Below are positions 19,090 to 62,768 of a stretch of DNA of 64,000 nt, piece after piece. A model generated the notes under the pieces. The model was not told the origin of the DNA. It made no database searches and saw only the letters and a program-made list of their open reading frames with translations. The stretch is from an uncultured Bacilli bacterium. Its GTDB lineage: Bacteria; Bacillota_I; Bacilli_A; RF39; UBA660. Each line of letters opens with the position of its first letter. Positions within the stretch are counted from its first letter, which is position 1. The position numbers and the translations under genes are program-made. The stretch spans positions 108,562 to 172,561 of the forward strand of contig CAKOHH010000001.1 in NCBI GenBank assembly GCA_934085675.1, written 5' to 3'.

Positions 19090-20457
19090 CTAATTAACAA
19101 TATAAGGATCTGTCATAGTGCCGGTTCCTGTAATTGTAACGCCAGACTTTAAATTAATAACCGGACGGCATGCCAGATTTCCACCTGAATATGTATCGTC
19201 AATCGCATAAAAACCAGCATTTTGAGCAGAAAAAATTTTAACCTGTGGGCTTTGAAAATAAGCATCATAATAGCCAGATGGTGTCATTGTCCAAAACTCG
19301 TTTCCAGCAACTAAATAATCATTTATATTTTTTTTTGCATTATTATATTTACCATTTACAATTCCACCAGCATGACCAGCAAACATTACTTCATCAATTG
19401 TAATTAATCCAACCGGATATGTTAAAACTTTATTACCTAAAGAAGAGGAAGAAACAGTATAATAATCACTTGCATTCTCACATACAAGTGTTGGCTTACT
19501 TGCCTCAACTCTTACATATGCTTTATAATAAGTTATCGTTTGTCCTATTCCTGTGTTTGAATCATTTGATAATGAACTGCGATCACCACAAAACCCAACA
19601 TTGATATCTAATTTTGATGCGTAACTCGAAAGTTTATCCGTATAGAACTTATCTACATTTGTTTTAATTTTTGATGATGTTCCCGTACCATGAGTTTCTC
19701 CTTCAGTATACATATAGCCTACATACATATTGTTATTAGAACTTGGATTAAATTGACTGGTGCCATATTGTCTATCTGTTGATGATTCGCCATTAGCATG
19801 GGCACTTGTACCATCATAAATCATTCTAATAGAACCATTGCTGTTTATTCTTATGATTCTCCAATAGTAACCTGCAAACTTGACATAATTGTTTTCTACT
19901 GAACCTCGATAATAATAAGTAGGCTTGCCATCATTGTCTGTTGTTTCATAAATTCCTTTTTCGTGGGATTCACATGAAGAATCATCACAGGCTGACTTTG
20001 TAAAATCTGGAGTATAACTATTAACTTCAATGTTTCCTAAAGCCGTTTTTAGTGTTTTAGCTGTTTTATTAAAATATAAAGTACATTTGGTTCTAGTATT
20101 ATCTGTTGCACTATAATTATAATAATCACCAATGAATTTCCAACCAGCATTATCCCAAGTTGGAACAACGCCATTATTACAGTTTGATTTTGTTTCATCT
20201 AAAGTGTAACCTGTATTTTGAAGAGGCATATTTCTTGATATAACCCCATCTATATAATAAGCAAAATAAATGTCTCCTGGATCTTCTACTGTGCCATTTA
20301 TGACATCAAAAGCTTTCTTTTCTTCATATAAAGCATAGGATTTATAAAATAAATAACTGCTTATGGAAAGTAAAAGAAATCCTATGACTAATATGACATA
20401 AGATTTTCTTTTATAATTATTGTCTTTATATCTTTTTAATTCCATTATCTTCACCAT
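19090..20457 (-). CDS. Secreted variable surface/exoprotein, family A1, paralog 1
   Basis: Sec signal with KSYA-LYEEK cleavage site. Conserved core YYYRGSVENNYVKFAGYYWRIIRINSNGSIRMIYDG. C-terminal tail RPVINLKSGVTITGTGTMTDPYIVN. Paralogous to 7 other ORFs in the window. Confidence 0.7.
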   Translation of the reverse strand: MVKIMELKRYKDNNYKRKSYVILVIGFLLLSISSYLFYKSYALYEEKKAFDVINGTVEDPGDIYFAYYIDGVISRNMPLQNTGYTLDETKSNCNNGVVPTWDNAGWKFIGDYYNYSATDNTRTKCTLYFNKTAKTLKTALGNIEVNSYTPDFTKSACDDSSCESHEKGIYETTDNDGKPTYYYRGSVENNYVKFAGYYWRIIRINSNGSIRMIYDGTSAHANGESSTDRQYGTSQFNPSSNNNMYVGYMYTEGETHGTGTSSKIKTNVDKFYTDKLSSYASKLDINVGFCGDRSSLSNDSNTGIGQTITYYKAYVRVEASKPTLVCENASDYYTVSSSSLGNKVLTYPVGLITIDEVMFAGHAGGIVNGKYNNAKKNINDYLVAGNEFWTMTPSGYYDAYFQSPQVKIFSAQNAGFYAIDDTYSGGNLACRPVINLKSGVTITGTGTMTDPYIVN

Positions 20458-20505
20458 AGTTTCCTATGATGATTATAACAGATACCCCCCCCCCGACTGT
20501 CAATA
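20458..20505 (-). promoter_or_regulatory. Promoter with a G10 homopolymer in the -35/-10 spacer (candidate phase-variation switch)
   Basis: Minus strand reads TTGACAgtc-G10-tatcTGtTATAAT-catcatAGGAAActATG. The poly-C run on the + strand spans 20485-20494. Confidence 0.65.
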
Positions 20506-20544
20506 GGTTTTTATTTTATTTGGTTGCTATAATTGTTTTATTTC

Positions 20545-20909
20545 TTTTTTGGAAAGCACCGAAATCATAGCAATGTAATCTAAATCATCGGTTGTTTTTA
20601 ATAGTCGTTCGATAACTGCCTTTTTCTCTGCATCAATTCCTTCTTCACGGCCATAATCATGAGCCTTTTTAAGCTGACTACTATAACCACGACAAAGATA
20701 AACATTTGACTTTCTTAAATTTTCTTCATTGAATGTTTTATAAGCTTCTAAGTTTAAAATGATATCTTTTCTTAAAAAAGCAAAAACATCGGCCCTGATA
20801 TTCTTTTCTTTATAAGTTGCTTTTTTAAATGGATATTCATGACTTATAATCTCAATTTGTTTCCTAAGATATTTTTCACCCAGTAGTCTTCCATTAAATC
20901 AATTTTCAT
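20545..20909 (-). pseudogene. Rpn-like nuclease gene remnant (two internal deletions, altered 3' end)
   Basis: Start codon and the first ~20 codons are identical to the intact copies. About 360 bp and about 80 bp are missing. Both deletion junctions sit at short direct repeats (gcctttttaa / ttctaaga). Confidence 0.7.
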
Positions 20910-21814: not shown

Positions 21815-21865
21815 TTAATTACTCCTCTCATTTCTTGTTATTATAACACTTTTGTATCCGTATAT

Positions 21866-22735
21866 CTATACTAACACAATTTTCTCTAATTCTTCTTTAG
21901 AAAGTCCTGTGGCAGCAGAAATCTTTTCTAAAGAAAAGTTCATTTTTAAAAGTTCTTTGGATATTAGGATACGTTCCTCTTTTTTGCCAACATCAATTCC
22001 TTTACTCATGCCGATACTGATTCCTTTATCAATTCCTTCTTCACGACCATAATCACGAGCCTTTTTAAACATACTTCTTTCTTCATTCATTACTTCATCG
22101 CTTAAAAGGGCATTCATATACTCATCCATTGTCATAATTGTTCTCCATTTCCATTTTAGTTTGTCTCGTTCTTCTTCACTATTTGCTTTTAAATATCTTA
22201 AAATATCTAAAAACTCTTCATCACTTATGCCTACATTATAATTAAGTTTATCTAGTAAATCAAGACGTATGTAATAAATTTGAATATCATCTGTTAAAGG
22301 ATAGCCTTGTTCTTCTAAGAAATATCTTTGCACTAATTTATCTTGTAAAACACCTTTTTTTACATGGTCTACTAAATTAATTTGGATAAACTTCTTCATC
22401 TTATGATATGGCATGCTCTTTTTTAGTTGACTACTATAGCCACGACAAAGATAAACATTTGATTTTCTTAAATTTTCTTCATTAAATGTTTTATAAGCTT
22501 CTAAGTTTAAAATGATATCTTTTCTTAAAAAAGCAAAAACATCGGCCCTGATATTCTTTTCTTTATAAGTTGCTTTTTTGAATGGATATTCATGACTTTT
22601 AATCTCAATTTGTTTTTCTAAGAAACCTTTAGGTAATCTTAAAACATTTTCTGAGATAACTTCAAGTGGTCGGGTGTATTCTTCATTTCCTAAGATATTT
22701 TTCACCCAGTAGTCTTCCATTAAATCAATTTTCAT
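21866..22735 (-). CDS. Rpn/YhgA-like PD-(D/E)XK recombination-promoting nuclease (copy 2)
   Basis: More than 90% identical to 18100-18960 over most of its length. The C-terminal Gly-repeat region is diverged. Confidence 0.5.
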   Translation of the reverse strand: MKIDLMEDYWVKNILGNEEYTRPLEVISENVLRLPKGFLEKQIEIKSHEYPFKKATYKEKNIRADVFAFLRKDIILNLEAYKTFNEENLRKSNVYLCRGYSSQLKKSMPYHKMKKFIQINLVDHVKKGVLQDKLVQRYFLEEQGYPLTDDIQIYYIRLDLLDKLNYNVGISDEEFLDILRYLKANSEEERDKLKWKWRTIMTMDEYMNALLSDEVMNEERSMFKKARDYGREEGIDKGISIGMSKGIDVGKKEERILISKELLKMNFSLEKISAATGLSKEELEKIVLV

Positions 22736-22864
22736 GATTTCTTTCTCCTTTCTAAGAAGATAAATAAATTACCTTCTACTTATATATTCAAAAAAAATCC
22801 TTGATTTCCTTTTTTTTAGTGAAAAAAAATTGCAATTTCTTGCAATCTTGACATTTATTTGACA

Positions 22865-24229
22865 CTAATTAACAATATAAGGATCTGTCATAGTGCCGGT
22901 TCCTGTAATTGTAACGCCAGACTTTAAATTAATAACCGGACGGAGACCATTGTTATAAACTGTAGCTCCATCGCCAAAAGCACCTAAACCACCGACGCCG
23001 ATTACACTAGTAAACCAGCTAGTTCCGCAGAACGGATAATAACCTCCTGCTGGTGTCATTGTCCAGTAAGAAATTCCCATTATCAAATAACTATCTGCAT
23101 TTTCCTTTTGATGACTATATTCACCATCAAAGACACCACCGGCATGACCTGCATACATAGCTTCATCAGCGGTTATTAAGCCAATCGGGTAGTTTAATTT
23201 TTTATTACCGCTTGCCGCACTAGAAACCGTATAATAATCTTTTATATTTTCACAGGTAAGTGTTGGTGTACTTTCTTCTACCCTTATGTATCCTTTATTA
23301 TAAGTAGTTACCGTGCCGGTTCCGACACCACTTTGCTGAGTTAGGCTAGAACGGTCTCCACAAAAACCTGCATTCGTATCTAATTTTGAAACGTAACTTG
23401 AAAGTTTATCTGTATAGAACTTGTCCACATTTATTTTAACGGCTGAAGCTGTACTCGTGCCATAGGCTTCTCCGGATGTGTACATATAGCCGACATACAT
23501 ATTGTTATCTGATGATGTATTAAATGGACTGGTACCGTATCGTCTATCTTCAGAAGCCTCTCCGTTTTTATGAGCTACTGTCCCATCATAAAGCATTCTA
23601 ATTGAACCATTGCTGTTTATTCTTATGATTCGCCAGTAAAAGCCTGCAAACTTAACATAATTATTTTCGACAGAACCACGATAGTAATAAGTTGGCTTTC
23701 CATCATTGTCTGTTGTTTCAAAAATGCCTTTTTCATGGGATTCACATAAAGAATCATCACAGGCTGACTTTGTAAAATCTGGAGTATAACTATTCACTTC
23801 AATATTTCCTAAAGCCGTTTTTACTGTTTTTGCTGTTTTATTAAAATATAAAGTACATTTAGTTCTTGTATTTGTGGTTGCACTATAATTTTTGTAATTC
23901 ATTTTGGCTTCCCAAGAAGCATTATTCCAAGTTGGAACAACACCATTATTACAATTTGATTTTGTTTCATCTAAAGTATAACCCGTATTTTGAGCTGGCA
24001 TATTTCTTGATATAACACCATCTATATAATAAGCAAAATAGATATCTCCTGGATCTTCTACTGTTCCATTTATGACATCAAAATCTTTCTTTTCTTCATA
24101 TAAAGCATAGGATTTATAAAATAAATAACTATTTACAGAAAGTAAAAGAAATCCTATGACTAATATGACATAAGATTTTCTTTTATAATTATTGTCCTTA
24201 TATTTTTTTAATTCCATTATCTTCACCAT
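22865..24229 (-). CDS. Secreted variable surface/exoprotein, family A1, paralog 2
   Basis: N-terminal ~330 aa nearly identical to paralog 1. The C-terminal third has diverged. The C-terminal tail is the same. Confidence 0.7.
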   Translation of the reverse strand: MVKIMELKKYKDNNYKRKSYVILVIGFLLLSVNSYLFYKSYALYEEKKDFDVINGTVEDPGDIYFAYYIDGVISRNMPAQNTGYTLDETKSNCNNGVVPTWNNASWEAKMNYKNYSATTNTRTKCTLYFNKTAKTVKTALGNIEVNSYTPDFTKSACDDSLCESHEKGIFETTDNDGKPTYYYRGSVENNYVKFAGFYWRIIRINSNGSIRMLYDGTVAHKNGEASEDRRYGTSPFNTSSDNNMYVGYMYTSGEAYGTSTASAVKINVDKFYTDKLSSYVSKLDTNAGFCGDRSSLTQQSGVGTGTVTTYNKGYIRVEESTPTLTCENIKDYYTVSSAASGNKKLNYPIGLITADEAMYAGHAGGVFDGEYSHQKENADSYLIMGISYWTMTPAGGYYPFCGTSWFTSVIGVGGLGAFGDGATVYNNGLRPVINLKSGVTITGTGTMTDPYIVN

Positions 24230-24280
24230 AGTTTCCTATGATAATTATAACAGATACCCCCCCCCCCGACTGTCAAGAGG
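24230..24280 (-). promoter_or_regulatory. Promoter with a G11 homopolymer in the spacer (candidate phase-variation switch)
   Basis: Same TTGACAgtc-Gn-tatctgTTATAAT architecture. The C run on the + strand spans 24257-24267, which is 11 nt. Confidence 0.65.
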
Positions 24281-24291
24281 CTTTTGGGAGT

Positions 24292-25641
24292 TTAATTCAC
24301 TATATATGGATCTGTTTTGGTTCCTGTTCCTGTGATTGTTACATCTGAGCAAATGTTAACAACAGGTTTTATACCTACAGTAGCAGTACATGTCCAGTCA
24401 TTTATTTGACCAACACCCCCATTAAGAAAGAGAGACGTAGACCAATACCCATCACCAATGATAAAAGTTCCAGAAACTGGAGTTATAGTCCAAAAATTTG
24501 TTCCTGATGTATAAATATTTAAACTTTTAGGTTGTATATTTAAAACACCTTCAAACATTCCTCCTCCAGAGCCTGATAGCATTAACTCATCTACCGTGAT
24601 TAAGCCAATATTATACTTTAAACTTCTATTTCCAATGTTTGCTGATGAAATTGTATAATAATCATCATTCATACATGACAAATCAGGATTACTTTGAACA
24701 ACACGCTTATATCCTTCAAAAATGGTGTCATTATTATTAATTCCAGCATTATTGTTATTCGATGTTAAGATAATTCTACGATCCCCACAGAAACCGACAT
24801 TTGTATCTAATTTTGATGCGTAACTCGAAAGTTTATCCGTATAGAACTTATCTACATTTGTTTTAATTTTTGATGATGTTCCCGTACCATGAGTTTCTCC
24901 TTCAGTATACATATAGCCTACATACATATTGTTATTAGAACTTGGATTAAATTGACTGGTGCCATATTGTCTATCTGTCGATGCCTCCCCATTAGCATGA
25001 GCACTTGTCCCATCATAAATCATTCTTATTGAGCCATTACTGTTTATCCTTATGATTCGCCAATAAAAGCCTGCAAACTTAACATAATTGTTTTCTACTG
25101 AGCCACGATAGTAATAGGTTGGATTGCCATCATAGTCTGTTGTTTCAAAAATGCCTTTTTCATGGGATTCACATAAAGAATCATCACAGGCTGACTTTGT
25201 AAAATCTGGAGTATAACTATTCACTTCAATATTTCCTAAAGCCGTTTTTACTGTTTTAGCTGTTTTATTAAAATACAAAGTGCATTTGGTTCTAGTATTT
25301 GTGGTCGCACTATAATTATGATAATCACCAATAAATTTCCAACCAGCATTATCCCAAGTTGGAACAACGCCATTATTACAGTTTGATTTTGTCTCATCTA
25401 AAGTATAACCTGTATTTTGAAGAGGCATATTTCTTGATATAACGCCATCTATATAATAAGCAAAATAAATATCCCCTGGATCTTCTACGGTTCCATTTAT
25501 GACATCAAAATCTTTCTTTTCTTCATACAAGGCATAACTCGGGGATAAAACTAGATATCCTGCTACTACCCCTAATAAAAAAAATAAGAAAAAAATTAGT
25601 ATCTTCTTATAATTTATTTGTTTAAACTTTTTCAAAGACAT
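24292..25641 (-). CDS. Secreted variable surface/exoprotein, family A1, paralog 3
   Basis: Different signal peptide (MSLKKFKQINYKKILIFFLFFLLGVVAG). Same core as paralogs 1/2. Divergent C-terminal third. Tail KPVVNICSDVTITGTGTKTDPYIVN. Confidence 0.7.
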   Translation of the reverse strand: MSLKKFKQINYKKILIFFLFFLLGVVAGYLVLSPSYALYEEKKDFDVINGTVEDPGDIYFAYYIDGVISRNMPLQNTGYTLDETKSNCNNGVVPTWDNAGWKFIGDYHNYSATTNTRTKCTLYFNKTAKTVKTALGNIEVNSYTPDFTKSACDDSLCESHEKGIFETTDYDGNPTYYYRGSVENNYVKFAGFYWRIIRINSNGSIRMIYDGTSAHANGEASTDRQYGTSQFNPSSNNNMYVGYMYTEGETHGTGTSSKIKTNVDKFYTDKLSSYASKLDTNVGFCGDRRIILTSNNNNAGINNNDTIFEGYKRVVQSNPDLSCMNDDYYTISSANIGNRSLKYNIGLITVDELMLSGSGGGMFEGVLNIQPKSLNIYTSGTNFWTITPVSGTFIIGDGYWSTSLFLNGGVGQINDWTCTATVGIKPVVNICSDVTITGTGTKTDPYIVN

Positions 25642-25710
25642 AAAAAAATCACCACAGTTTCCCTATGATGATTATAACAGATACCCCCCCCCCGACTGTC
25701 AAGAGTATCT
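25642..25710 (-). promoter_or_regulatory. Promoter with a G10 homopolymer in the spacer (candidate phase-variation switch)
   Basis: TTGACAgtc-G10-tatctgTTATAAT. The C run on the + strand spans 25684-25693. Confidence 0.65.
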
Positions 25711-34171: not shown

Positions 34172-34813
34172 CTATTTTTTAGATTGAATCAAAGTAACGG
34201 CTACTAAAACAATAACAACGCCAATTAGGCCAATGATAATATAATTAACACTTTGAGGATTATTAACAGCATCATTTACGACCGCACCTGTTAAAAAATA
34301 ATCAGAACAATGTTCTATTTCAAAAGTTACCTTGCCATTTTTAACTTCCACATTTTTTGTTATATATTCAATAGTGTCATTATCTGGATTGTAATAATAA
34401 AGATAAAGTTCATCACCATTTTTAAATTCATTTTGAACATCCAAAGTAACCATAGTCTTTAAAGGAAGCGTACCATGATAATCAAAAGAAACAATTAATT
34501 TTTTTTGACTCACTTTATCCTCAATCCTTGAAGCTCCTGTTGTCGTTTCATTTAAAGATAATCTTAAATCTTCATCAATGTATAAACTGTCTTCCACCGA
34601 TATTTTTTTAGCTTTATCTTTTATAAATTGCCAACTATACTCTAAACCTCTTTCATAGTCTTTAATTTCATAAGTATAATAATCATTTGATTCTGTCTTT
34701 GTTATCGAAATATTTTTTTCTAAGGCTTTTACCTCTTTAAACGAAAAAAGAGAAATAGATATCACAAATATTTCTAAAAGACAAAACAGAATTTTTCTTC
34801 CCCTTTTTTTCAT
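34172..34813 (-). CDS. Hypothetical membrane protein (TM segments at both ends)
   Basis: Hydrophobic N- and C-terminal segments; no recognisable domain. Confidence 0.35.
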   Translation of the reverse strand: MKKRGRKILFCLLEIFVISISLFSFKEVKALEKNISITKTESNDYYTYEIKDYERGLEYSWQFIKDKAKKISVEDSLYIDEDLRLSLNETTTGASRIEDKVSQKKLIVSFDYHGTLPLKTMVTLDVQNEFKNGDELYLYYYNPDNDTIEYITKNVEVKNGKVTFEIEHCSDYFLTGAVVNDAVNNPQSVNYIIIGLIGVVIVLVAVTLIQSKK

Positions 34814-40588: not shown

Positions 40589-40663
40589 AAATAAACTCTC
40601 CTACCCTACTATTTATTACATTTAAATTTTAACACATTACCGCACGTCTTAGCAACTAGATAT

Positions 40664-40726
40664 TTTGGAAATATTTTTCCAGAACTACACTAAATCTTCA
40701 AGTTTTGGAAATATTTTTCCAAAACT
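40664..40726 (-). promoter_or_regulatory. Two copies of a palindromic operator-like site TTTTGGAAAtATTTTTCCAaAACT, 39 bp apart, upstream of the family-B gene
   Basis: Copies at 40664-40687 and 40703-40726. Each is an inverted repeat GGAAAAATATTTCC. Confidence 0.45.
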
Positions 40727-50408: not shown

Positions 50409-51683
50409 TTAATCCTTTAAGCAGCCTATTGGAACAACAAAAATGCCATCTTCTCTTTTATAAGCATAATTTCCTGTCGCTGTTAATATCATCATAAAAG
50501 CTGGATTATTCATCTTTTCTGTATCTATTTTACTTCGAAGTTTTAATAAATTTTCTGCACCTTCTTGTATTAGTTTGTCCCCACCTAACTTTATTTCTAT
50601 TAGTCCATAAGAGCCATTTCTTAAATGAATGACAGCGTCACATTCTAGTCCTGAAGAATCTCTATAATGATAAACTTTACCATTATTTGCATCAGCATAA
50701 ACTCTTAAATCTCTAATACACATTGCTTCAAACACCAAGCCAAATGTTCTTAAATCATTTATTAAATCATCTGGGCCTATTCCTAAAGCAGCCACGCCTA
50801 TAGAAGGATCCACAAAATATCGTGTTTCAGATGTCCTGGTAGCTATTTTACTTCTTAAATTTGGATTCCATGCAGGACTTTCCTCAACGACAAATATTTT
50901 TTTTAAGGCATTAATATAGGAATATACTGTATCAGAATCAAGAGAATTTGTATCATTTTTTATCATATCTTCCTTAATAGTTTCATAACTGGCTTGTGTA
51001 CCAATATTTCTTGCATAACTCCTCATTAAATTTTTTACTCTTTCTGGAGTTCGATTTATTCCATCCACTCTTGAAATATCTGAATTTACAACAGCATCAT
51101 AATAATCATATGCTTGTTCTAAAGCAATGTCATTATCCATAAAAACACTTCTAGGCCAACCACCGCGGCAGCATAAAAAAGCAATATCGTTCAGAGTTAA
51201 GTTATTTATCGCACTTATTCTTTGAGGATTGTTAAAAAGATTATTTAAACTAACTTCCCCATTTGATTCTCCTGACTCAAATAATGCCATAGGTCGCATA
51301 GTAAGCCATGAAAATCGTCCGGTTCCTGTATGACTAACATTTTCCATGCTGGCAGGAACTGAAGAACCTGTTAGTATAAATTGTCCTTCTTCACCACGAT
51401 GATCAACTTCAAATCTAACAGCATCCCATAATTTTGGGGCTAATTGCCATTCATCTATCAATCTTGGAACCTCTCCCGCTAATAATAAACTAGGATTTAT
51501 ATCTGCTAGAGTAAGATTTTGTTCTTTGTCCTCTGGCCTAGCCATATACAAAATACTCTTAGCTATTTGCTCGGCCGTTGTGGTTTTTCCACACCATTTA
51601 GCTCCCTCAATTAAAACAGCTCCTTTTCCTTTTAATTTTTTTTCAAGTATTTGATCAGCAATTCTTTTTTTATATTCTTTCAT
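50409..51683 (-). CDS. AAA-family ATPase with DUF4143 region ('ATP-binding protein'), paralog 2
   Basis: Walker A GAKWCGKTT. Same architecture as 46497-47837. Confidence 0.6.
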   Translation of the reverse strand: MKEYKKRIADQILEKKLKGKGAVLIEGAKWCGKTTTAEQIAKSILYMARPEDKEQNLTLADINPSLLLAGEVPRLIDEWQLAPKLWDAVRFEVDHRGEEGQFILTGSSVPASMENVSHTGTGRFSWLTMRPMALFESGESNGEVSLNNLFNNPQRISAINNLTLNDIAFLCCRGGWPRSVFMDNDIALEQAYDYYDAVVNSDISRVDGINRTPERVKNLMRSYARNIGTQASYETIKEDMIKNDTNSLDSDTVYSYINALKKIFVVEESPAWNPNLRSKIATRTSETRYFVDPSIGVAALGIGPDDLINDLRTFGLVFEAMCIRDLRVYADANNGKVYHYRDSSGLECDAVIHLRNGSYGLIEIKLGGDKLIQEGAENLLKLRSKIDTEKMNNPAFMMILTATGNYAYKREDGIFVVPIGCLKD

Positions 51684-52544: not shown

Positions 52545-54680
52545 TTATTTTGTATGAATTGTGAAATTATCATTATTCACATCTACAACTAAAATATCAT
52601 TAGGTTTTAAATCTTGTTCAATCATATATTTAGCAAGTAAAGTTTCAATGTTTTTCGTAACATATCTTCTAATTGGTCTTGCACCATAATTTTCATCAAA
52701 TGATTCATCAATAACTTTTTGACGAGCCTTATCTGTTAATTCTAAAGATATTTGTTTGTCTTTTAAACGACTATTAATTTCCCCAATAATTTTATTTAAA
52801 ATTGCTCCTACGACATCTTTATGTAAAGAATGGAAGACAATAATTTCGTCAATACGATTGATAAATTCGGGACGGAAGTTATTTTTAAGTTCATTTAAAA
52901 CTTTTTCTTCTGCATTATCTTCATTGTCTAAGATGTATTCACTACCTAAATTACTTGTCATAATAATGATGGTATTTTTAAAGTCAACGGTTCTTCCTTG
53001 GGAATCGGTAAGACGTCCATCGTCTAAGATTTGTAATAAAATATTAAAGACATCTTTATGTGCTTTTTCTATCTCATCAAATAAGACAATACTATAAGGA
53101 TTTCTTCTTACTGCTTCCGTTAAGACGCCACCTTCATCATATCCGACATATCCTGGAGGAGCACCAATTAAACGAGAAACATTAAATGATTCCATATACT
53201 CCGAACAATCAATTCGAATCATATGACGTTCATCATCAAATAATTCATAAGCAAGACTTTTAGCTACTTCGGTTTTACCAACACCGGTTGGACCTAAGAA
53301 GATAAAAGAACCAATAGGACGATTAGGGTCTTTAATACCACTTCTCGCTCTTAAAATGGCATCACTTACTCTTCTTAAAGCATCATCTTGGCCAATAACT
53401 CTTTCTTTTAATCGGTCATATAAGTGAAGTAGTTTTTCTTTTTCACTACTAACTAATTTAGAAACAGGAATCTTTGTCCAACGTGAAATAATACTTGCAA
53501 TTCCTTCTTCATCGACAACGTCGGATAAAATAGTACCTTTCTCTTCTTTACGAAGTTCTTCTAATTCTTTTTCAAGTTTTGGAATCGTACCATGACGAAG
53601 ACGAGCACTTGTTTCCAAATCATAACTATTTTCGGCATTTTGTAAATCAAAACGAGCTCTTTCTAATTCACTCTTCTTTTGATTTATTTTATCTTTAATA
53701 CCCTTTTCTTCTTCCCATTTATGACGCATTTCACTTTCTTCTTTTTTCAAAGTAGAAAGTTCTTCATCAATTTTCATAACTCTTGCGCGAGATAAATCAT
53801 CTTTTTCTTTTTTCAAAGCCTGACGTTCAATCTCTAAAGACATAATCTTACGAGTTAATTTATCAAGAGGTACAGGAACAGAATCAAGTTGCATCTTAAT
53901 AGTAGCACAAGCTTCATCGACAAGATCAATGGCTTTATCTGGTAAATATCTATCAGTGATATATCTATCTGATAAAGTAGCTGCAGCGACTAGTGCACTA
54001 TCTTTAATAGTAACACCATGAAAGATTTCAAATCTTTCTTTTAAACCTCTTAAAATAGTAATCGTATCCATAACAGTTGGTTCAGAAACTAAAACTTTTT
54101 GAAATCTTCTTTCCAACGCCCCATCTTTTTCAATGTATTTACGATACTCATTTAAAGTAGTTGCGCCGATTAAATGAATTTCACCACGAGCAAGCATTGG
54201 TTTTAACATATTAGAAACATCCATAGCACCTTCAGCCCCATTACCAACAATCATATGAATTTCATCAATGAACATAATAATGTTGCCATCACTTTTTTCA
54301 ATTTCTTTTAAAACGGCTTTTAGACGTTCCTCAAACTCACCACGATATTTAGCACCAGCCACTAAAGCACCTAAGTCAAGTTCCCAAATTGTTTTATTTT
54401 TAAGACTATTAGGAACATCTCCGGCAACTATTCTTTGGGCAAGTCCTTCGACTATAGCTGTTTTACCAACACCTGGTTCACCAATTAAAACAGGATTATT
54501 TTTACTTTTACGTGATAAAATACGAATAACATTTCTGACTTCTTCATCACGACCTATAACAGGATCAACCTTGTTATCACGAGCATTCTTTGTAATATCA
54601 CGTCCATATTTATCTAAGACATTTTTTAATTCTTCATTATTTTCATTATACATATTTAAACCCTCCTTTTTAAACATCAT
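52545..54680 (-). CDS. clpB: ATP-dependent chaperone ClpB (short form lacking N-domain)
   Basis: Two AAA+ modules ([18 protein letters not shown]) with an intervening coiled-coil M-domain. Confidence 0.9.
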
Positions 54681-54696
54681 TATTATATCTCAATCA

Positions 54697-54723
54697 TTAG
54701 CACTTGTCAATATAGAGTGCTAA
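54697..54723 (-). promoter_or_regulatory. CIRCE element (HrcA operator) upstream of clpB
   Basis: TTAGCACT-tgtcaatat-AGAGTGCTAA matches the CIRCE consensus TTAGCACTC-N9-GAGTGCTAA. Confidence 0.85.
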
Positions 54724-54851
54724 TGATTGCTATAAAAAGATACCTAACCGAAGTTAGATATACGTTACCAACTTGTTTAGACTATTTTAAAATTAAAATA
54801 ATCAAGTTCATCAGTTATAAATCTTAGAATATCATCTTCACTAATAGACTA

Positions 54852-54956: not shown

Positions 54957-56585
54957 TTAATCCCCTGATAACTCGTACGGACTTTCTTTAGAGCCATTGC
55001 CATTAACAATTGCAACAGAGGATTTTAAATAAACGGATGGGCGTATCAGAACAGAATTTGCTGCACTAAGGCCATCATCAATGTTACATCCGACATTACC
55101 ACCATTACCTACGTCAAACACATTAGTAGTATCTGATGTATCAGTTCTAGAAGAAATAGTCCATTGAAAATTACTTGAAACATAAAACCAATCATTATTT
55201 TTACAATCGCTATAAGAACTATCATTCCAATTAAGCAATTCTTTGGTTAAACAGCTACTTCGATTATTTTTGCTTCCCCCACTGGTTGCAAATCCATAAT
55301 CACTTGGATACATTAAGCCAACTTTCCCTTGCCATGTACTAGTTCTTGTCACAGTATCATTGCAAAAAACACCTGACGTACATATTTTTCCTGTATTATC
55401 GCTTCGCTCATAACTATAAAAATGAATAGTTAATCCATTGCTCGCTGTTGTCCAACCGTTTGTACCTTGACTTCCCGTGTTCCATAAAGTGTTTCCTATT
55501 AATTTTTTTAAATTTGGTTTTAAGCCACTACTTGTAAAATCACAGGCTTTTGTGGCATTATCACTATAAGAATAGCAGTTTCCAGAACTATTATTGTAGT
55601 ATAATGAACCACCAACACTTTCACTTTCATAGCCTGGATTTAAAAGTTTCATTAAATCAGCCTGGCTCCATTCATTGACACCCCAACCACTATTTACCGA
55701 TGAATCTGAAGTATCCCATGAATAATTTCCTATTGATTCATTTCTTATTAATTTTAGTCTTGATTCTTTTTTTCCTGTTCCATCATCTATATTATTCATA
55801 ACACCTATAATACGCCAAAACTCATTATCTATTTTGACATAGTTACAAGGATTTGCTCCAACATATCTTAAATTGTTATCACTTGTTCCATCATAGGCTA
55901 AGGTATAAGTACAACTATCACTTGTTTTATCCGGAACAGTATAGACGTCTGTTGAAGAAGTATCTGCTTTGGCTGCTAAATTAGAAACCACACTTGTGGC
56001 ATATGGTATTTCTGTTTCATATTTTGCTGTTACAATAACTTTTGAATTAAAAGTTGTATTTTGAATATTTAATGTTTCTGTTGTTACATTTTCATCTAAC
56101 CATAATCTTAAATCATAAGTTTTACTTTCTTTAGAGTCTAAATAACCTGTTGTTAAATTAAAAGCAGATTTAGCGTTATTAAGTGTTTTTGTTACAGTTT
56201 CATAATTTGATAATAAATCTAATTTTAATTCATTTTCAACATTACCTTCTTTTTTAGAAAACATAACTTTAATAGCATTATTATTTGTTAAAGTTGAAGT
56301 ATTTAATACTTCTAAATTAACAGCGTATGAAGCAGAAGAATCACAGTTATTTGTTATGGTAAATTCATATGGAGTTAACTTTTTTCCATCTTTATCATAC
56401 AAAGGATAACTCTTTTGTAAACTTATATTATCTTTTTCAGTAAAACTAATATTAAAACAAGTAGAAGCAATATCATTTTCACTTGTTTGAGTTAAATTTA
56501 AAGTCCATATAGCATAAGATATACCAATTACACTTAATATTAGGACAATACTAATCATTATTATTAATACTTTTTTCTTTTTCAT
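54957..56585 (-). CDS. Secreted variable surface/exoprotein, family B, paralog 2
   Basis: Signal peptide MKKKKVLIIMISIVLILSVIGISYA-IWTLNL. Same core as 38996-40588. Tail RPSVYLKSSVAIVNGNGSKESPYELSGD. Confidence 0.7.
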   Translation of the reverse strand: MKKKKVLIIMISIVLILSVIGISYAIWTLNLTQTSENDIASTCFNISFTEKDNISLQKSYPLYDKDGKKLTPYEFTITNNCDSSASYAVNLEVLNTSTLTNNNAIKVMFSKKEGNVENELKLDLLSNYETVTKTLNNAKSAFNLTTGYLDSKESKTYDLRLWLDENVTTETLNIQNTTFNSKVIVTAKYETEIPYATSVVSNLAAKADTSSTDVYTVPDKTSDSCTYTLAYDGTSDNNLRYVGANPCNYVKIDNEFWRIIGVMNNIDDGTGKKESRLKLIRNESIGNYSWDTSDSSVNSGWGVNEWSQADLMKLLNPGYESESVGGSLYYNNSSGNCYSYSDNATKACDFTSSGLKPNLKKLIGNTLWNTGSQGTNGWTTASNGLTIHFYSYERSDNTGKICTSGVFCNDTVTRTSTWQGKVGLMYPSDYGFATSGGSKNNRSSCLTKELLNWNDSSYSDCKNNDWFYVSSNFQWTISSRTDTSDTTNVFDVGNGGNVGCNIDDGLSAANSVLIRPSVYLKSSVAIVNGNGSKESPYELSGD

Positions 56586-56617
56586 TTTACTATCCTTTCA
56601 TCTAATAAAAAACAAAA

Positions 56618-58597
56618 CTAATTGGTTACAATCTCGTAAGGACTAGAAGATGTTCCTATTCCTCCGCTTATTTTGGCATCTCCTTTGATATTTATAACAG
56701 GACGAACACCATAGCCGCCGGTCACCCAGTCGCTGTTAGGAGAGCCTGAGCTGCCCAAATAGAACTCACCTACCGCCGCATCCGAGATATAGAAACTCCT
56801 CGGAGACAAAGTCCAATAAGTTGACGTACTATAAGTATAAGCAGATTTATTAATATAACCATTGGCATACCCTGAAAGCATTAATTCATCGACTGTAATT
56901 AAGCCAATCGGATAAGTTAAGGCTTTATTTCCTTTAGTATTTGTACTTAAGGTAAATAAATCGTTTATTTGAACGCATTTTAAAGTTGGCTGTTTTGTAT
57001 AAAAATATCTACTATAAGGTCCATAGTTAGTATTAGACCCTGTTGTTGAATATCCATTTCCCGAATCTAGACTTCTATCATTACAGAAACCGGCATCAGC
57101 GATGACTGATTCATTGCTTGTTCCTAAAATATGGGTTTTATACCAATTATCTAATACTTTTTTGATATTGCTATCGTTTTCATTGGCATTTGTTTTTTCA
57201 TAACTTGTATTTAAAGTACTGCCAGACATGTATCCTACATAAGCTGGGTTATCTCTTTTACTATTAAAGGAAGCTGATTTTATATTTAATCCTGAACCAC
57301 TGGCATTGGCTGTTGCTCCCGCATATAAAAGTCTGACACTGCCATCACCATTGATACGAATAATTTGCCAGTAAGCATCAGCATATTTTACATAGTTGTT
57401 ATTTACTGAACCACGATAGTAATAACTTATACCATCAGCATCGGCCATTTGATAAAGTCCTTTATCTGATTTATCACTTTCTCTTTCTGTTTGGTTCAGT
57501 AAATAACCTTTTAAATTATATCTTCTCATTTTGAAAGAAGTTCCTCCTGAACCTGTTGCTGTTCCATCCGTAACACTAGCACTGGTGATTTCATAAATAT
57601 TTGCACAACCTGAGGTATTTTTCCATATTGATATAACATCAGCAGAACTTGTGCGATATCCAGCACCACAGAAATAATACTTAGTATTTCCACCATATGT
57701 TAAAGTAGTTGGATCTACTTGCTGAACATTTGTAATGGTATATGTTCCTGTCTCAGAATTAAAGGTATAACTAGAACCAATGGGAAGTAAAACGGCTGAG
57801 GCAGACAAGTTTTTAAATCTTGCATCTGTATCTTTTTGAGCAACTAAATCTGGATGAGGCATTGTTGATGATGGACTACTTAGACTTGTGGCTTTATTTT
57901 CATTCCAAATAAGAATAGGAGCAGTCCTACTAAAATCAACTGTTTGTTTAGCCGCTATTTTTTGTTTAGATATTTCAGGCGTTGTTTGATATTCGTTAGC
58001 AAGAATAACGTCCGCTAGGGTTGTATAGCCTTGCTCTACTGGGCTATAGTTACTTACTGATGCTGTTACAACTACTTTTGATTTAAAGTTTTTGTTCATA
58101 GCGTCTGTATCTTCTGGCGTAACATCTTCACTCATCCATAATCTTAAGTTATAATCAACACTGTCACCTGAACCTAAAGAACCTTTGGCAAGTATTTTTG
58201 ATGTTACAGAACCATTTATTGTTGTTTTAGCATCTTCTAATTCACTTAGTTTAATAACGCTTTCATTATTTATCATAGAACTAATATATTTTATTGGTAA
58301 CGTATTGTTTTCTAATATTTCTAAATTAACAGTGTAACTGGCAAATAAATCACAAGTATTTGTTATCGTAAAACTATAAGGCGTTAACTTTTTGCCTTCT
58401 TCATTTGTTATAGGGTAAGCATTAACTAAATTAATATTATTTTTTTCATTTGTTAACGATAAACTAAAACAACTTCCTGCTATTTTATTAAAACCTTTTT
58501 GAGACAAATTTAAAGTCCATATAGCATAAGAAATACCAATTATACTTAATATTAGAACAATACTTATCACTATTATTAATACTTTTTTCTTTTTCAT
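56618..58597 (-). CDS. Secreted variable surface/exoprotein, family A2, paralog 1
   Basis: Has the N-module of family B (KLTPYSFTITNTCDLFASYTVNLEIL) and the core of family A (YYYRGSVNNNYVKYADAYWQIIRINGDGSVRLLYAG). Tail RPVINIKGDAKISGGIGTSSSPYEIVTN. Confidence 0.7.
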   Translation of the reverse strand: MKKKKVLIIVISIVLILSIIGISYAIWTLNLSQKGFNKIAGSCFSLSLTNEKNNINLVNAYPITNEEGKKLTPYSFTITNTCDLFASYTVNLEILENNTLPIKYISSMINNESVIKLSELEDAKTTINGSVTSKILAKGSLGSGDSVDYNLRLWMSEDVTPEDTDAMNKNFKSKVVVTASVSNYSPVEQGYTTLADVILANEYQTTPEISKQKIAAKQTVDFSRTAPILIWNENKATSLSSPSSTMPHPDLVAQKDTDARFKNLSASAVLLPIGSSYTFNSETGTYTITNVQQVDPTTLTYGGNTKYYFCGAGYRTSSADVISIWKNTSGCANIYEITSASVTDGTATGSGGTSFKMRRYNLKGYLLNQTERESDKSDKGLYQMADADGISYYYRGSVNNNYVKYADAYWQIIRINGDGSVRLLYAGATANASGSGLNIKSASFNSKRDNPAYVGYMSGSTLNTSYEKTNANENDSNIKKVLDNWYKTHILGTSNESVIADAGFCNDRSLDSGNGYSTTGSNTNYGPYSRYFYTKQPTLKCVQINDLFTLSTNTKGNKALTYPIGLITVDELMLSGYANGYINKSAYTYSTSTYWTLSPRSFYISDAAVGEFYLGSSGSPNSDWVTGGYGVRPVINIKGDAKISGGIGTSSSPYEIVTN

Positions 58598-58630
58598 TTT
58601 TACTATCCTTTCATCTAATAAAAAATAAAA

Positions 58631-60646
58631 CTAATTGGTTACAATCTCATAAGGACTAGAAGATGTTCCTATTCCTCCACTTATTTTGGCATCTCCTTTG
58701 ATATTTATAACAGGACGAACACCACAGCCACCGTCCACCCAGCCATTGAAGTAAGGATAGCCTGCACTATTCAAACTGAACTCTCGTACCACTACATTAA
58801 AATAACTTGGAGATATAGTCCAATAGTTAGACGTACTATAAGTATAAGTTGACTTGTTAATATAACCATCTGCATAGCCTGAAAGCATTAATTCATCGAC
58901 TGTAATTAAGCCAATCGAATAAGTTAAGGCTTTATTTCCTTTAGTACTTGCCCTTAAGGTAAATAAATCATTTGTTTGAGAGCATTTTAAAGTTGGCTGT
59001 TTTGTTTGAAAATATCTTCTCCGAGGTCCATAGATGATGCTAGATTCTGTTGTAGAATAACCATTTCCAAAAGATAAACTTCTATCGTTACAGAAACCAG
59101 CATCAGCGATGACTGATTCGTTATTTGTGCCGAAAATATTGGTTTTATACCAATTATCTAATTCTTTTTTGATATTACTGTCGTTTTCATTGGCTGTTGT
59201 TTTTTCGTAACTTGTATTTAAAGTACTACCATACATGTATCCTACATAGGCTGGGTTATCTCTTTTACTATTAAAAGCAGCTGATTTTATATTTAAACCT
59301 GAACCACTTGCATTACCCGTTGTTCCCGCATATAAAAGTCTGACACTGCCATCACCATTCATACGCATAATACGCCAATAAGCACCTGCATATTTCACAT
59401 AATTGTTGCTTACCGAACCACGGTAGTAATAACTTATGCCATCATCATCTGCCATTTGATAAAGTCCTTTATCCGACTTGTCACTTTCTCTTTCTGTTTG
59501 ACTCATGCTGTATGCTTTTAAATTATATTTTCTGGTTTTGAAAGAAGTTCCACCTGAACCTGTGGCTGTTCCATCAGTATAGGTAGTACTGGTTATTTCA
59601 TAAATATTTGAACAGTCTGATGTAGTTTTATAAACACCAATAACATCATCTGAACTGATATTATAGCCTGAACTGCAGAAATAATACTTAGTATTCCCTC
59701 CATATGTTAAAGTGGTAGGATCTAATTGTTGCACATTTGTTATATCATATTTTCCTGTTTCAGGATTAAAAGTATAACTAGAACCGATAGGAAGTAAAAC
59801 TGATTCAGAAGTCAAGTTTTTAAACCTCGGATCTGTATCTTTTAAAGCTACTAAATCTGGATGAGGCATTATTACTGACTTACTACTTAAGTTAGAATCT
59901 TTGCTTTCGCTCCATATTAAAATTGGAGCTGTCTTACTAAAATCAACTGCTTGTTTGGCCGCTATTTTTTGCTTAGATATTTCGGGTGTTGTTTGATATT
60001 CGTTTGCTAGTATGGCATCTGCTAAGGTTGTATAGCCTTGTTCTGATGGGATGTAAGTACTTCTTTGGGCTCCTATGGTTACTTTTGATAAAAAGGTGGT
60101 ATTCATAGAGTCTGTATCATTTATGGTGACATCTTCATCCATCCATAGTCTAATGTTATAATCAGTACTGTCACCGGAACCAAGGGTTCCTTTAAAAAGA
60201 ACTTTGGAAGAAGAAGCATTATCTAAAGTTGTTTGGGTATCTTCTAAATCTTTTAATTTAGCGATGGCTTCATTATTTACCATTGCTTTAATATATTTAT
60301 AAGGCATCGTAGAATCATTTAAAATTTCTAGGTTAACTGTGTAACTTAAAAATAAATCACAAGTATTTGTTATCGTAAAACTATATGGTGTTAGTTTTTT
60401 TCCTTCGGCATCAGATATGGGATAAGCCTTGGTAAGATTAATATCATTTTTTTCATTAGTTAATGATAAATTCAAACAACTTGTTACAAGTTTTGAAGGA
60501 TTATGACTACTAAAAGTTAAAAGCCAATAAGCATAGGATACACCTATAACTGTCATCATTACTAATAGTATTACAATAATTAAAATAATCTTTTTCTTTT
60601 TGCTCATCTTCTTATACTCCCTTAAGACTAGTATGTAACATAACAT
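58631..60646 (-). CDS. Secreted variable surface/exoprotein, family A2, paralog 2
   Basis: About 75% identical to 56618-58597, with an identical C-terminal tail. The intergenic junction is duplicated. Confidence 0.7.
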   Translation of the reverse strand: MLCYILVLREYKKMSKKKKIILIIVILLVMMTVIGVSYAYWLLTFSSHNPSKLVTSCLNLSLTNEKNDINLTKAYPISDAEGKKLTPYSFTITNTCDLFLSYTVNLEILNDSTMPYKYIKAMVNNEAIAKLKDLEDTQTTLDNASSSKVLFKGTLGSGDSTDYNIRLWMDEDVTINDTDSMNTTFLSKVTIGAQRSTYIPSEQGYTTLADAILANEYQTTPEISKQKIAAKQAVDFSKTAPILIWSESKDSNLSSKSVIMPHPDLVALKDTDPRFKNLTSESVLLPIGSSYTFNPETGKYDITNVQQLDPTTLTYGGNTKYYFCSSGYNISSDDVIGVYKTTSDCSNIYEITSTTYTDGTATGSGGTSFKTRKYNLKAYSMSQTERESDKSDKGLYQMADDDGISYYYRGSVSNNYVKYAGAYWRIMRMNGDGSVRLLYAGTTGNASGSGLNIKSAAFNSKRDNPAYVGYMYGSTLNTSYEKTTANENDSNIKKELDNWYKTNIFGTNNESVIADAGFCNDRSLSFGNGYSTTESSIIYGPRRRYFQTKQPTLKCSQTNDLFTLRASTKGNKALTYSIGLITVDELMLSGYADGYINKSTYTYSTSNYWTISPSYFNVVVREFSLNSAGYPYFNGWVDGGCGVRPVINIKGDAKISGGIGTSSSPYEIVTN

Positions 60647-60781
60647 GTATTTTAAACTACCTTTATTATTACTTTATAAGTATAGCACTTTATCGCACAT
60701 TTTAGCAACTTGTTTTCAAATAAAAAAACGAGTAAGTCTCGCTTTTTTAGAATAAATATTTTATGTTGTATCTTTAAAAAA

Positions 60782-62768
60782 TTAGTTTGTTACAATCTCA
60801 AATGGACTAGAAGATGTTCCTATTCCGCCACTTATTTTAGCATCTCCTTTGATATTTATAACAGGACGAATACCATTGTCGTCGGTCACCAAGCGGTCGC
60901 TAGGATAGCCTGAGCTGCTCAAAGCGAACCCACTCGCCTCCGTATTCGAGCCACGGAACTTCCTCGGAGACAGAGTCCAATAAGACCTTGTACTGTATGT
61001 ATAAGCAGATTTATTAATATAACCATCAGCATATCCTGAAAGCATTAGTTCATCGACAGTAATTAGGCCAATCGGATAAGTTAAGGCTTTATTTCCTTTA
61101 GTACTTGTGCTTAAGGTAAATAAATCGTTTGTTTGAGCACACTTTAAAGTTGGTTGTTTAGTTTCATAATATCTATAATGTGACCCGTAGTATGTAGAAG
61201 AACCTGTTGTAGAATATCCATTTCCTGAAGACAAACTTCTATCATTACAGAAACCGGCATCAGCGATGACTGATTCATTGCTTGTTTCTAAAATATTGGT
61301 TTTATACCAATTGTCTAATTCTTTTTTGATATTGCTGTTGTTTTCATTGGCTGTTGTTTTTTCATAACTTGTATTCAAGGTACTACCATACATATAACCG
61401 TTGTAGGCTGGATTATCTTCTTTAACATTAAAGGTTTCCGATTTTATTCTTAATCCTGAACCACTGGCATTGGCTGTTGTTCCCGCATATAGAAGTCTGA
61501 CACTGCCATCACCATTGATACGAATAATTCGCCAGTAAGCACCAGCATATTTTACATAGTTGTTATTCACTGAACCACGATAGTAATAACTTATACCATC
61601 ATCATCTTCACTTTTGTATAGTCCTTTATCCGATTTGTCGCTTTCTCTTTCTGACTGAGTCATACGATAACCTTTTAAATTATATGTTCTGGTTTTGAAA
61701 GAAGTTCCGCCTGAACCAGTTGCTGTTCCATCTTCAAAACTGGCACTGGTGATTTCGTAAATACTTGAACATCCTGAGGTATCTCCCCATATAGATATAA
61801 CATCAGCAGAACTTGTATTATATCCCGCACTACAGAAATAATACTTCGTAGTCCCACCATATGTTAAAGTGGTTGGATCTACTTGTTGAACATTTGTGAT
61901 ATCATATTTTCCTGTTTCAGAATTAAAAGTATAACTAGAGCCAATTGGCAGTAAAGGTGATTCAGCATTTAACTTTTCAAATCTCGCATCTGTATCTTTT
62001 AAGGCAACTAAATCGGGATGAGGCATCGTTGCAGTTTTAGTACCTAGGTTAGTGTCTTTATATTCACTCCATGTTAAAATTGGAGCCGATTTACTAAAAT
62101 CTACGGTTTGTTTGGTGGCGATTTTTTGTTTAGATATTTCAGGAGTTGTTTGATATTCGTTGGCTAGTATGGCATCGGCAATGGTTGTATAGCCTTGTTC
62201 TACTGGACTATAATTACTTCTTTGGGCTCCTATGGTTACCTTAGATAAAAAGGTGGTATTCATAGAGTCTGTATCATTTACGGTGATATCTTCATCCATC
62301 CATAGTCTAATGTTGTAATCAGTACTGTCGCCTGAACCAAGAGTTCCTTTAAAAAGAACTTTGGAAGAAGAGGCATTATCTAAAGTTGTTGGGGTATCTT
62401 CTAAATCTTTTAATTTAGTAATGGCTTCATTATTTACCATAGACTTAATATATTTATAAGGCATCGTGGAATCATTTAAAATTTCTAGGTTAACTGTATA
62501 ACTTAAAAATAAATCACAAGTATTTGTTATTGTAAAACTATAGGGAGTTAACTTTTTTTCCTTCTTCATCAGATATAGGATAGGCTTTGGTAAGATTAAT
62601 ATCATTTTTTTCATTTGTTAATGATAAACTCAAACAACTTGTGACAAGTTTTGAGGGATTATGACTACTAAAAGTTAAAAGCCAATAAGCATAAGAAACA
62701 CCTATAGCCAACGACATCATTATTAATAGTATTATAATAATTAAAATAATCTTTGTCTTTTTGTGCAT
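60782..62768 (-). pseudogene. Family A2 paralog 3, frameshifted (ORFs 62538-62768 and 60782-62614)
   Basis: The reading frame is broken at an A7 run (plus-strand T run 62555-62561). The intact paralogs have A6 plus G at this position (gga aaa aag tta ac). The upstream region is homologous to 60647-60781. Confidence 0.65.

Follow-up and report, generated by a model that had tools for sequence, protein, structure and literature searches.

The 64,000-nucleotide (nt) stretch of DNA analyzed here (the window) spans positions 108,562 to 172,561 of contig CAKOHH010000001.1 (GenBank assembly GCA_934085675.1), which belongs to an uncultured Bacilli bacterium (GTDB lineage Bacillota_I; Bacilli_A; RF39; UBA660). 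It encodes eight paralogous open reading frames (ORFs), every one on the minus strand, which together span 13,288 nt and account for 20.8% of the window, and no extra members or fragments were detected in the 64 kb when the family was searched by tblastn. With moderate confidence, these genes are interpreted as a family of phase-variable, recombining, exported lectin-like binding proteins.

A first-pass annotation of this DNA had already placed eight ORFs here, covering around 20% of the window, and had described them as a tandemly duplicated multigene family forming a diversifying surface or secreted antigen system. All eight ORFs were found at those positions, and the tandem duplication was confirmed. 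Poly-G tracts in promoters, a hypervariable patch, gene conversion mosaics and a frameshifted copy are in line with diversification. Conversely, an antigenic role, a location at the cell surface and cleavage after an S-Y-A tripeptide are putative assignments derived from the protein sequences.

Family architecture and the fold of the core

According to all-vs-all BLASTP, the members form three groups, A1a/b/c (68-76% pairwise identity), A2a/b/c (74-82%) and Ba/Bb (60%). By the same method the A1 and A2 cores (the C-terminal ~290 amino acids, aa) share 30-40% identity (E 1e-48 to 1e-59) and residues 1-190 of A2 are 40-51% identical to the N-terminus of B (E 1e-37 to 1e-52), in agreement with the annotation, which had A2 sharing its N-terminus with B and its core with A1. 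The B and A cores are merely 21-23% identical by BLAST (E 1e-5 to 1e-9); the profile of the C-terminal half of B was aligned by hhalign to the A-core profile over 243 columns (Prob 99.9%, E 2.1e-31). B thus carries a divergent core, and the mosaic sits in the N-terminal modules: A1 has an N-domain of its own, A2 and B have one in common, and A2 adds a middle domain. The mosaic arrangement initially described was therefore right with regard to the module differences, but has to be amended in that B has the core too.

S-Y-A near the N-terminus and the ending RP(V/S)(I/V)xLK...G.G....PY are present in all eight proteins, as had been noted. The ~25-aa tail that had been singled out is not a separate module. 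In homologs of up to 4,905 aa the core with its tail (~280 aa) is repeated up to 11 times and the motif RPVINLK...G.GT...PY closes every copy, indicating that the tail comprises the last strands of the core domain and is no sorting signal.

A model of A2a was obtained with AlphaFold2 using 26 diverse homologs (mean predicted local distance difference test, pLDDT, 87.6; predicted template modeling score, pTM, 0.77). From the N-terminus it displays a helix (residues 3-26), a segment of low confidence (27-41) and a beta-sandwich, followed by two helices (194-215), a second beta domain and a mixed alpha/beta domain that corresponds to the core (limits in Table 1). In the A1a model the core was confident and the A1-specific N-domain was of low confidence (pLDDT 33-60). 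When the A1a model was compared with viral proteins by Foldseek, phage "DUF6273 domain-containing" proteins ranked first (prob 0.98-1.00), and the C-type-lectin-like fold is common to the core and the annotated DUF6273 domains. Pfam gave solely a weak DUF6273 match (PF19789) in A2a and A2b, which spans positions 118-172 of the hidden Markov model alone and covers the last ~60 aa of both proteins; A1 and B had no PF19789 match, and NCBIfam and PHROGs gave nothing for the family proteins. As modeled, the core is an enlarged C-type-lectin-like domain of the DUF6273 type, and the earlier statement that it could not be assigned to a named domain no longer holds. A match of the core to a housekeeping enzyme family, which the annotation had named as counter-evidence, was not obtained: no enzyme family matched in Pfam, NCBIfam or PDB.

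The closest solved relative of the core is the N-terminal domain of the immunoglobulin A (IgA) peptidase of Thomasclavelia ramosa (PDB 9qa6; 19% identity). This domain (residues 31-321) has been described as C-type-lectin-like, about twice the canonical size and with a structural zinc site (PMC12237041), and has been annotated as DUF6273 (PMC12402451). A phmmer match of A2a residues 336-470 to pertussis toxin S1 (E 0.03) vanished with profiles and was attributed to chance.

Promoter tracts, hypervariable segments and recombination

G/C runs of at least 7 occur just three times in the window, each time in the promoter spacer of an A1 gene (C10, C11 and C10 on the plus strand; Table 1). Each tract is located between TTGACA and the extended -10 element TGTTATAAT, ~15-30 nt upstream of the start codon, so that A1a, A1b and A1c all have a homopolymer between recognizable -35 and -10 elements. 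Shuffling of the window gave 0.21 expected G8 matches vs 10 observed, and 0 vs 3 for the full promoter motif; the observed count was attained in none of the shuffles. A census of tracts of at least 8 G in 746 kb around family genes, at 79 other genome loci, showed 12 of 13 tracts immediately upstream of a family ORF and all 13 on the sense strand. A metagenome scan with the promoter pattern showed that, in other assemblies, genes resembling A1, A2 and B are also preceded by poly-G promoters. The length of the tract differed, within a small range, between loci or strains with otherwise conserved flanks: G9 in L121, G10 in most cases, and G11 in A1b of the window and in two of the three copies of strain L135.

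From this architecture we infer that the A1 genes may be contingency genes, in which changes in spacer length by slipped-strand mispairing would set transcription. G10 would represent either an off/low state or a state in which the extended -10 gives a basal activity that is tuned by the tract. Another promoter, TTGACA-AGC-G(8/9/10)-AAC(A/T/G)G-TATAAT, with near-identical flanks and a spacer of 16-18 nt, was observed in seven other JGI-style metagenome contigs (L083, L084, L093, L095, L096, L103, and L106); no family gene was detected downstream of it in these contigs, suggesting that poly-G promoter spacers may be wider spread in metagenomes.

The promoter switches that the annotation had attributed to the family are thus found as G10/G11 tracts in the A1 spacers and do not extend to the other groups. 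A2c, A2b and Ba have ordinary promoters, that of A2b probably driving the run A2b-A2a-Bb, and A2a and Bb are preceded by ribosome-binding sites alone. Two palindromes of ~22 nt (TTTTGGAAAAATATTTCCAAAA), located at 40663-40724, directly upstream of the -35 element of Ba, and not at the A2 promoters, have the appearance of an operator bound by a dimeric regulator. A scan for inverted repeats around the family genes detected no convincing invertons, only these palindromes and an inverted repeat, ATTAGCACT-N11-AGTGCTAAT (54683-54737), just upstream of the ClpB gene (52545-54680), which resembles the CIRCE heat-shock operator (TTAGCACTC-N9-GAGTGCTAA). Look-ups of the exact A2a and A1c proteins returned no contig on record.

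The coding sequences vary in a defined region. Between aa ~46 and 285 the A1 paralogs are mostly 90-100% identical, with a few blocks at 70-77% vs A1b; over the ~135 aa that follow, identity drops to 18-67% with insertions and deletions, and A1a and A1b are near-identical again across the last ~25 residues. A2 and B display a matching dip in identity right before the tail. When conservation was computed across 48 diverse cores, the family-wide minimum mapped to A2a residues 602-631, between YWTxSP and GVRPVINLK, a region predicted by AlphaFold2 as beta-hairpins. This part of the domain, near its C-terminus, is hypervariable in A1, A2 and B alike. In phage DUF6273 proteins the region diversified by retroelements is likewise located at the C-terminus of the domain and forms a surface hairpin (bioRxiv 10.1101/2024.10.15.618418; PMC10743442); by analogy, the variable patch may be the ligand-binding face.

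The rate of synonymous substitution (dS) between A1a and A1c was 0.29 in the conserved part vs 1.66 in the variable part. The ratio of nonsynonymous to synonymous rates (dN/dS) was mostly <1 and the variable segment is saturated, which argues neither for nor against positive selection. A1a and A1c have an exact tract of 175 nt in common that ends precisely at the conserved/variable boundary (19605 / 24804), A1b and A1c one of 123 nt, and A1a and A1b one of 79 nt at the 3' end (A1a 19090-19168), which extends as a 100% identical block of 245 nt (18911-19155 and 22686-22930) into the downstream gene. Patchwork identity similar to that of A1 was found among the A2 paralogs. The contrast in dS together with exact tracts linking different pairs is the signature of gene conversion, or of an exchange of cassettes flanked by conserved DNA.

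The A1 genes are accompanied by genes of the Rpn family (PF12784; TIGR01784 E 4e-12, below cut-off), one of them degraded (Table 1). Based on these copies and the identical block, the duplication unit comprises the poly-G promoter, the A1 gene and Rpn. Remnants of Rpn were also observed between A1 copies in strain L135, and the Rpn genes may be linked to the recombination of the family.

Copies are also inactivated and rearranged. A2c carries one +1 frameshift caused by an additional A in a homopolymer (A7; T7 on the plus strand, 62553-62559), and deletion of one base of the run restores an intact ORF of 661 aa; at the slip site, paralogs and sister strains have in-frame runs of A5-A7 (A6 in the sister strains). 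The pseudogenization previously described thus corresponds to this one copy. Sister strains encode two A2 genes, not three, A2c being replaced by an unrelated 177-aa gene (MKTPLLYQLSEFDCGP...), located between rpoC and the A2 genes (L127 2727-3260, L128 2426-2959), that looks like a papain/C39-type peptidase. In some strains an insertion with a weak match to DDE_Tnp_1 (transposase) lies between B and clpB, and in one strain three A1 genes are found beside IF-2/RbfA rather than EF-P.

Table 1. Positions of the family genes, their domains and promoters, and adjacent Rpn genes in the window.
Feature	Position	Strand	Remarks
A1a gene	19090-20457	-	455 aa as ORF, start probably Met5 (20445) judged against A1c; putative signal/anchor N-terminus, A1-specific N-domain, predicted C-type-lectin-like core
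A1b gene	22865-24229	-	454 aa; start probably Met5 (24217) judged against A1c
A1c gene	24292-25641	-	449 aa
A2a gene	56618-58597	-	659 aa
A2b gene	58631-60646	-	671 aa as ORF; start probably Met14
A2c gene	60782-62768	-	broken by +1 frameshift
Ba gene	38996-40588	-	530 aa; A2-type N-domain and divergent, predicted lectin-like core (~aa 210-530)
Bb gene	54957-56585	-	542 aa; final gene of the A2b-A2a-Bb run
A2a putative signal	58523-58597	-	aa 1-25
A2a beta-sandwich N-domain	58055-58468	-	aa 44-181
A2a middle beta domain	57479-57913	-	aa 229-373
A2a predicted lectin-like core	56621-57460	-	aa 380-659
A1a hypervariable segment	19195-19605	-	~aa 285-421; near-identical DNA flanks
Least conserved core stretch	56705-56794	-	in A2a
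A1a promoter	20472-20503	-	TTGACA (20498-20503), GTC, G10 (20485-20494), TATCTGT, TATAAT (20472-20477); 20-nt spacer, extended -10 TGT
A1b promoter	24244-24276	-	architecture of A1a with G11 (24257-24267); 21-nt spacer
A1c promoter	25671-25702	-	architecture of A1a with G10 (25684-25693); 20-nt spacer
A2c promoter	62829-62858	-	ordinary, TTGTCA-17/18-TGTTATACT, no homopolymer
A2b promoter	60679-60708	-	ordinary, TTGCTA-18-TATACT, TG-extended
Ba promoter	40626-40655	-	ordinary, TTGCTA-17-TTAAAAT
Rpn-family PD-(D/E)XK nuclease/putative transposase gene	18100-18960	-	directly downstream of A1a
Second Rpn-family gene	21866-22735	-	directly downstream of A1b
Degraded third Rpn copy	~20518-20909		in the 790-nt gap upstream of A1a

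Predicted export of the proteins and alternative explanations

All members begin with a Lys-rich segment followed by a hydrophobic stretch of 17-20 aa. In 39 diverse N-domains aligned on the putative cleavage site, position -2 is Y in 37, -1 is A, S or G and +2 is aromatic in all, +8 is Q in 28, +12 is N in 34 and +18 is Cys in all; position -3 is S or T in the sequences listed. Judged by rule-based checks alone, the proteins have the features of a Sec signal (basic n-region, h-region of 15-20 aa, small residues at -3 and -1). The small residues fit with cleavage by a signal peptidase, and the invariant or conserved Cys pairs in the N-domain and core fit with an extracytoplasmic protein. The SipW-type signal model did not match the N-termini of the window proteins, which retrieved just the weak NCBIfam look-alikes FliL, MltG and TagU; as these are N-terminal anchors, the hydrophobic segment could also be retained as an uncleaved anchor.

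Several observations weigh against phase-variable, lectin-like binding proteins displayed by the cell. Variation in tract length was observed between assemblies only, G10, the commonest state, gives a 20-nt spacer that is 2-3 nt above those of the ordinary promoters of the window, and the frameshift in A2c could be an assembly error. With respect to the fold, PF19789 scored 19.6 bits (E 8.6e-4) in A2a and 18.4 bits in A2b, below the gathering score of 23.5 bits, the core has no PDB match at the sequence level, profiles included, and its closest solved relative in the IgA peptidase is a domain without known function (PMC12237041). As for positive selection, values of dN/dS >1 were found in just two short segments. 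Finally, a lipobox, an LPXTG motif and a C-terminal helix are all missing from the eight proteins as well as from the giant homologs. No Cys occurs in any of the eight N-termini, and hence these proteins do not match the variable lipoproteins of the Mycoplasma type, and an LPXTG with a hydrophobic charged tail is absent, all these proteins ending in ...G.GT...PY.I.

The promoter data could also be accounted for if the G tracts did not switch and were invariant parts of a promoter or operator, or else a feature that recurs in assemblies, the family being a set of diverged paralogs. The dominance of G10 across assemblies and the poor fit of a 20-nt spacer to a simple ON state agree with this proposal, which nevertheless appears quite unlikely: G9, G10 and G11 occur with identical flanks, even at one locus across assemblies, the tracts are present inside contigs of independent assemblies from several projects, and G runs of at least 9 slip at high rates in contingency loci. 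As to the origin of the variable patch, DUF6273 lectin-like domains are known targets of diversity-generating retroelements in gut phages (PMC10743442, PMC11792537) and the best viral fold matches of the core are phage DUF6273 proteins, hence the patch might be written by a retroelement or the genes might encode prophage receptor-binding proteins. No reverse transcriptase was found among the scanned window ORFs of at least ~100 aa, nor a template repeat, the sole repeats being the paralogs themselves; the variable segments differ by insertions and deletions and their synonymous sites are saturated. The lack of a reverse transcriptase among the larger ORFs together with these insertions and deletions leaves no retroelement signature. 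Moreover, the neighboring genes are housekeeping genes, no match was obtained by tblastn/megablast among 50,697 phage or 72,556 plasmid records, and no PHROG matched. Both possibilities were rejected as very unlikely.

The lack of a recognizable anchor has been considered in two other explanations. In one of them, the proteins would be polymerized or would cap fibers, displaying variable lectin heads without a sortase or lipid anchor: A2 and B would have a TasA/camelysin-type N-domain with a SipW-type signal, and the peptide exposed by cleavage would act as donor strand into the neighboring subunit. The N-domain family with its signal peptides was aligned by hhalign to 59 TasA/CalY proteins (Prob 75%, E 2.6e-5), with SYA set on the known TWA|A cleavage site of TasA, and there is a weak similarity in fold between TasA/CalY and the N-domain of A2 and B. 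In the stretch that follows the site AlphaFold2 gives a pLDDT of 27-49, yet residues +2, +8, +12 and +18 are conserved. In addition, the NCBIfam TasA model matched the N-terminus of homolog P0181 (E 0.0014; 18 bits vs a cut-off of 450) and the SipW-signal model TIGR04088 matched homolog P0254 (E 0.59; 10.4 bits vs a cut-off of 19). Upon removal of the signal peptides the hhalign match disappeared (E 0.13), and homology of the mature N-domain to TasA is thus unsupported; Pfam Peptidase_M73 (PF12389), NCBIfam TasA and TIGR04088 do not match the window proteins, a motif search of the window and of 1.2 Mb from related loci found no signal-peptidase gene, and A1 lacks the TasA-like N-domain. Fibers of this kind are considered unlikely. 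A low probability is also given to the extended proposal of a sortase- and lipid-independent fiber display with swappable heads set by poly-G tracts and cassette recombination, perhaps assisted by the Rpn nucleases; if true, it would be the main organ for host or partner recognition in a large group of uncultured, reduced-genome gut Bacilli.

The second explanation, secreted enzymes or nutrient-capture proteins, for example accessories in glycan or peptide processing, is likewise in line with the missing anchor. The first half of the core contains many invariant charged or polar residues (Y-x-R-G, R-x-N, FC-x-DR, D-E), which would form the active site, and the closest solved relative belongs to a peptidase. 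Yet that N-terminal domain is dispensable for the cleavage of IgA (PMC12237041), and the failure to match enzyme families, mentioned above, argues in the same direction. Hypervariable loops, poly-G promoters and multicopy arrays typify binding or antigen repertoires rather than enzymes, and this explanation seems improbable.

Considering the family as phase-variable, recombining lectin-like binding proteins, a mechanism can be proposed. The Lys-rich hydrophobic N-terminus with its conserved [S/T]-[Y/F]-[A/S/G] site would carry the protein across the membrane, and one or two beta-rich domains (the A1 type, or the A2/B beta-sandwich with the extra middle domain in A2) would serve as spacer. The C-terminal lectin-like head would be the working part, on a strongly conserved scaffold, and the beta-hairpins before the last strand, which differ almost wholly between paralogs, could provide each copy with a binding surface of its own. 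Variation would be generated in three ways: slippage in the G10-G11 tracts would alter the spacer, and each A1 gene could be switched or tuned independently; homologous recombination or gene conversion would shuffle the hypervariable cassette between near-identical flanks; and copies would be gained, lost, moved or inactivated, as exemplified by the frameshift in the A run of A2c and the differing arrays of the sister strains. For a gut bacterium with a reduced genome and few sortases, the likely role of such a system is variable adhesion or ligand capture, along with a means to evade phages or the IgA of the host.

Distribution, genomic context and comparison with known systems

A phmmer search with A2a against 1.84 billion representatives (clusters at 50% identity) retrieved 7,811 clusters at E<=1e-3, of which 1,317 reached E<=1e-30. 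None of the proteins among the homologs retrieved bears a name, and no paper describing the family was found in a full-text literature search. A scan of species-representative genomes confirmed at least 550 relatives in metagenome-assembled genomes from the gut titled uncultured Bacilli, Tenericutes, "Mycoplasma sp. CAG:956 / CAG:776" and Candidatus Ventrenecus avicola, whose sources, according to the titles, include human gut (Hadza), chicken, rabbit ('Lapin') and roe-deer rumen. These labels presumably stand for the uncultured orders RF39/RFN20, relatives of Mycoplasmatales. Such orders are reported to include walled as well as sporulating members, and RFN20 and ML615J-28 to lack sortases (srtA/B), which had been taken to mean few surface proteins (PMC10868615).

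The G+C content of the window is 26-35%. Other genes of the window encode RsgA, a PASTA kinase with a PP2C phosphatase, RelA/SpoT, LepA, SpoIIP, EF-P, PolC, DnaE, thymidine kinase, a class II tRNA synthetase, a penicillin-binding protein, RsmH, ClpB and the end of RpoC, a set of housekeeping neighbors indicating that the window is no prophage or plasmid. Three small proteins (34172-34813, 34832-35533, and 11951-12385) have a signal peptide and a C-terminal membrane helix, one of them adjoining a CAAX/Rce1-like protease, and the organism thus seems to anchor some exported proteins by C-terminal helices, unlike the eight-gene family. A GspE/PilB-type secretion/pilus assembly ATPase (10033-11301, plus strand; T2SSE, E 1e-126) is devoid of its customary N-terminal domain, and genes for a pilin or platform protein were not seen beside it. 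Two AAA_14/DUF4143 ATPase genes (46497-47837 and 50409-51683), less than 4 kb apart, flank an SPFH/NfeD pair and CorA. A 549-aa multi-pass membrane protein encoded on the opposite strand (44710-46359, plus) showed a weak match, below cut-off, to the putative glycosyltransferase family LA_3751/LA_3752 (E 3.5e-11).

The reduced-genome gut Bacilli usually labeled "Tenericutes" or "Mycoplasma sp. CAG", which humans and animals commonly harbor, have never been cultured, and a fifth of the DNA in this window is devoted to one uncharacterized exported family with thousands of relatives. If confirmed, the system would offer a handle on the attachment of these bacteria to hosts or partner microbes and on their escape from IgA or phages, as well as a second, retroelement-independent route to diversify the DUF6273 lectin face that gut phages diversify; G9-G11 between -35 and -10 would be a simple marker for contingency genes in metagenomes. 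The class of mechanism (multigene exported family, homopolymer promoter switches, recombination) is already known. What appears to be new is an uncharacterized protein family built on an enlarged DUF6273-type lectin fold, variation at the very face that phages alter by means of retroelements, the abundance of the family in an uncultured gut lineage and its consistent coupling to G9-G11 promoter tracts.

With regard to known systems, the proteins resemble phage DUF6273/C-type-lectin receptor-binding proteins (tentaclins, Mtd-like) in the class of fold and in the C-terminal hypervariable region, but they are encoded by chromosomal bacterial genes, have a larger domain with a sub-threshold Pfam match, and no retroelement was found in the window: diversity, which in the phage proteins originates from that element, would arise here from paralogs, recombination and promoter slippage. 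In the T. ramosa IgA peptidase (ThomasA; 9qa6) a single domain is fused to an M64 peptidase and anchored by sortase, whereas in the window it forms the C-terminal head in a multigene family. The A2 and B proteins are reminiscent of TasA/CalY (PF12389) in the signal peptide, the pattern of the cleavage site and the weak similarity in N-domain fold; the mature parts have no detectable sequence similarity, the family models miss them and a lectin head is attached. Phase variation by homopolymers in promoter spacers occurs in Mycoplasma hyorhinis (poly-A, vlp) and in Neisseria meningitidis (poly-G, porA; poly-C, opc). As in these systems, a homopolymer lies between the -35 and -10 elements of each A1 gene, which would make independent control possible; unlike them, the proteins are unrelated and without a lipobox, they come from another lineage that is uncultured, and the spacers of 19-21 nt exceed the optimum. 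Campylobacter jejuni also has poly-G contingency genes, with G tracts mostly within coding regions. The family is similar to them in its G9-G11 tracts, in a genome of ~30% G+C and in the concentration in genes for surface structures, putative ones in the family, and differs in that the tracts are located in promoters and the lone slip in a coding region affects an A run.

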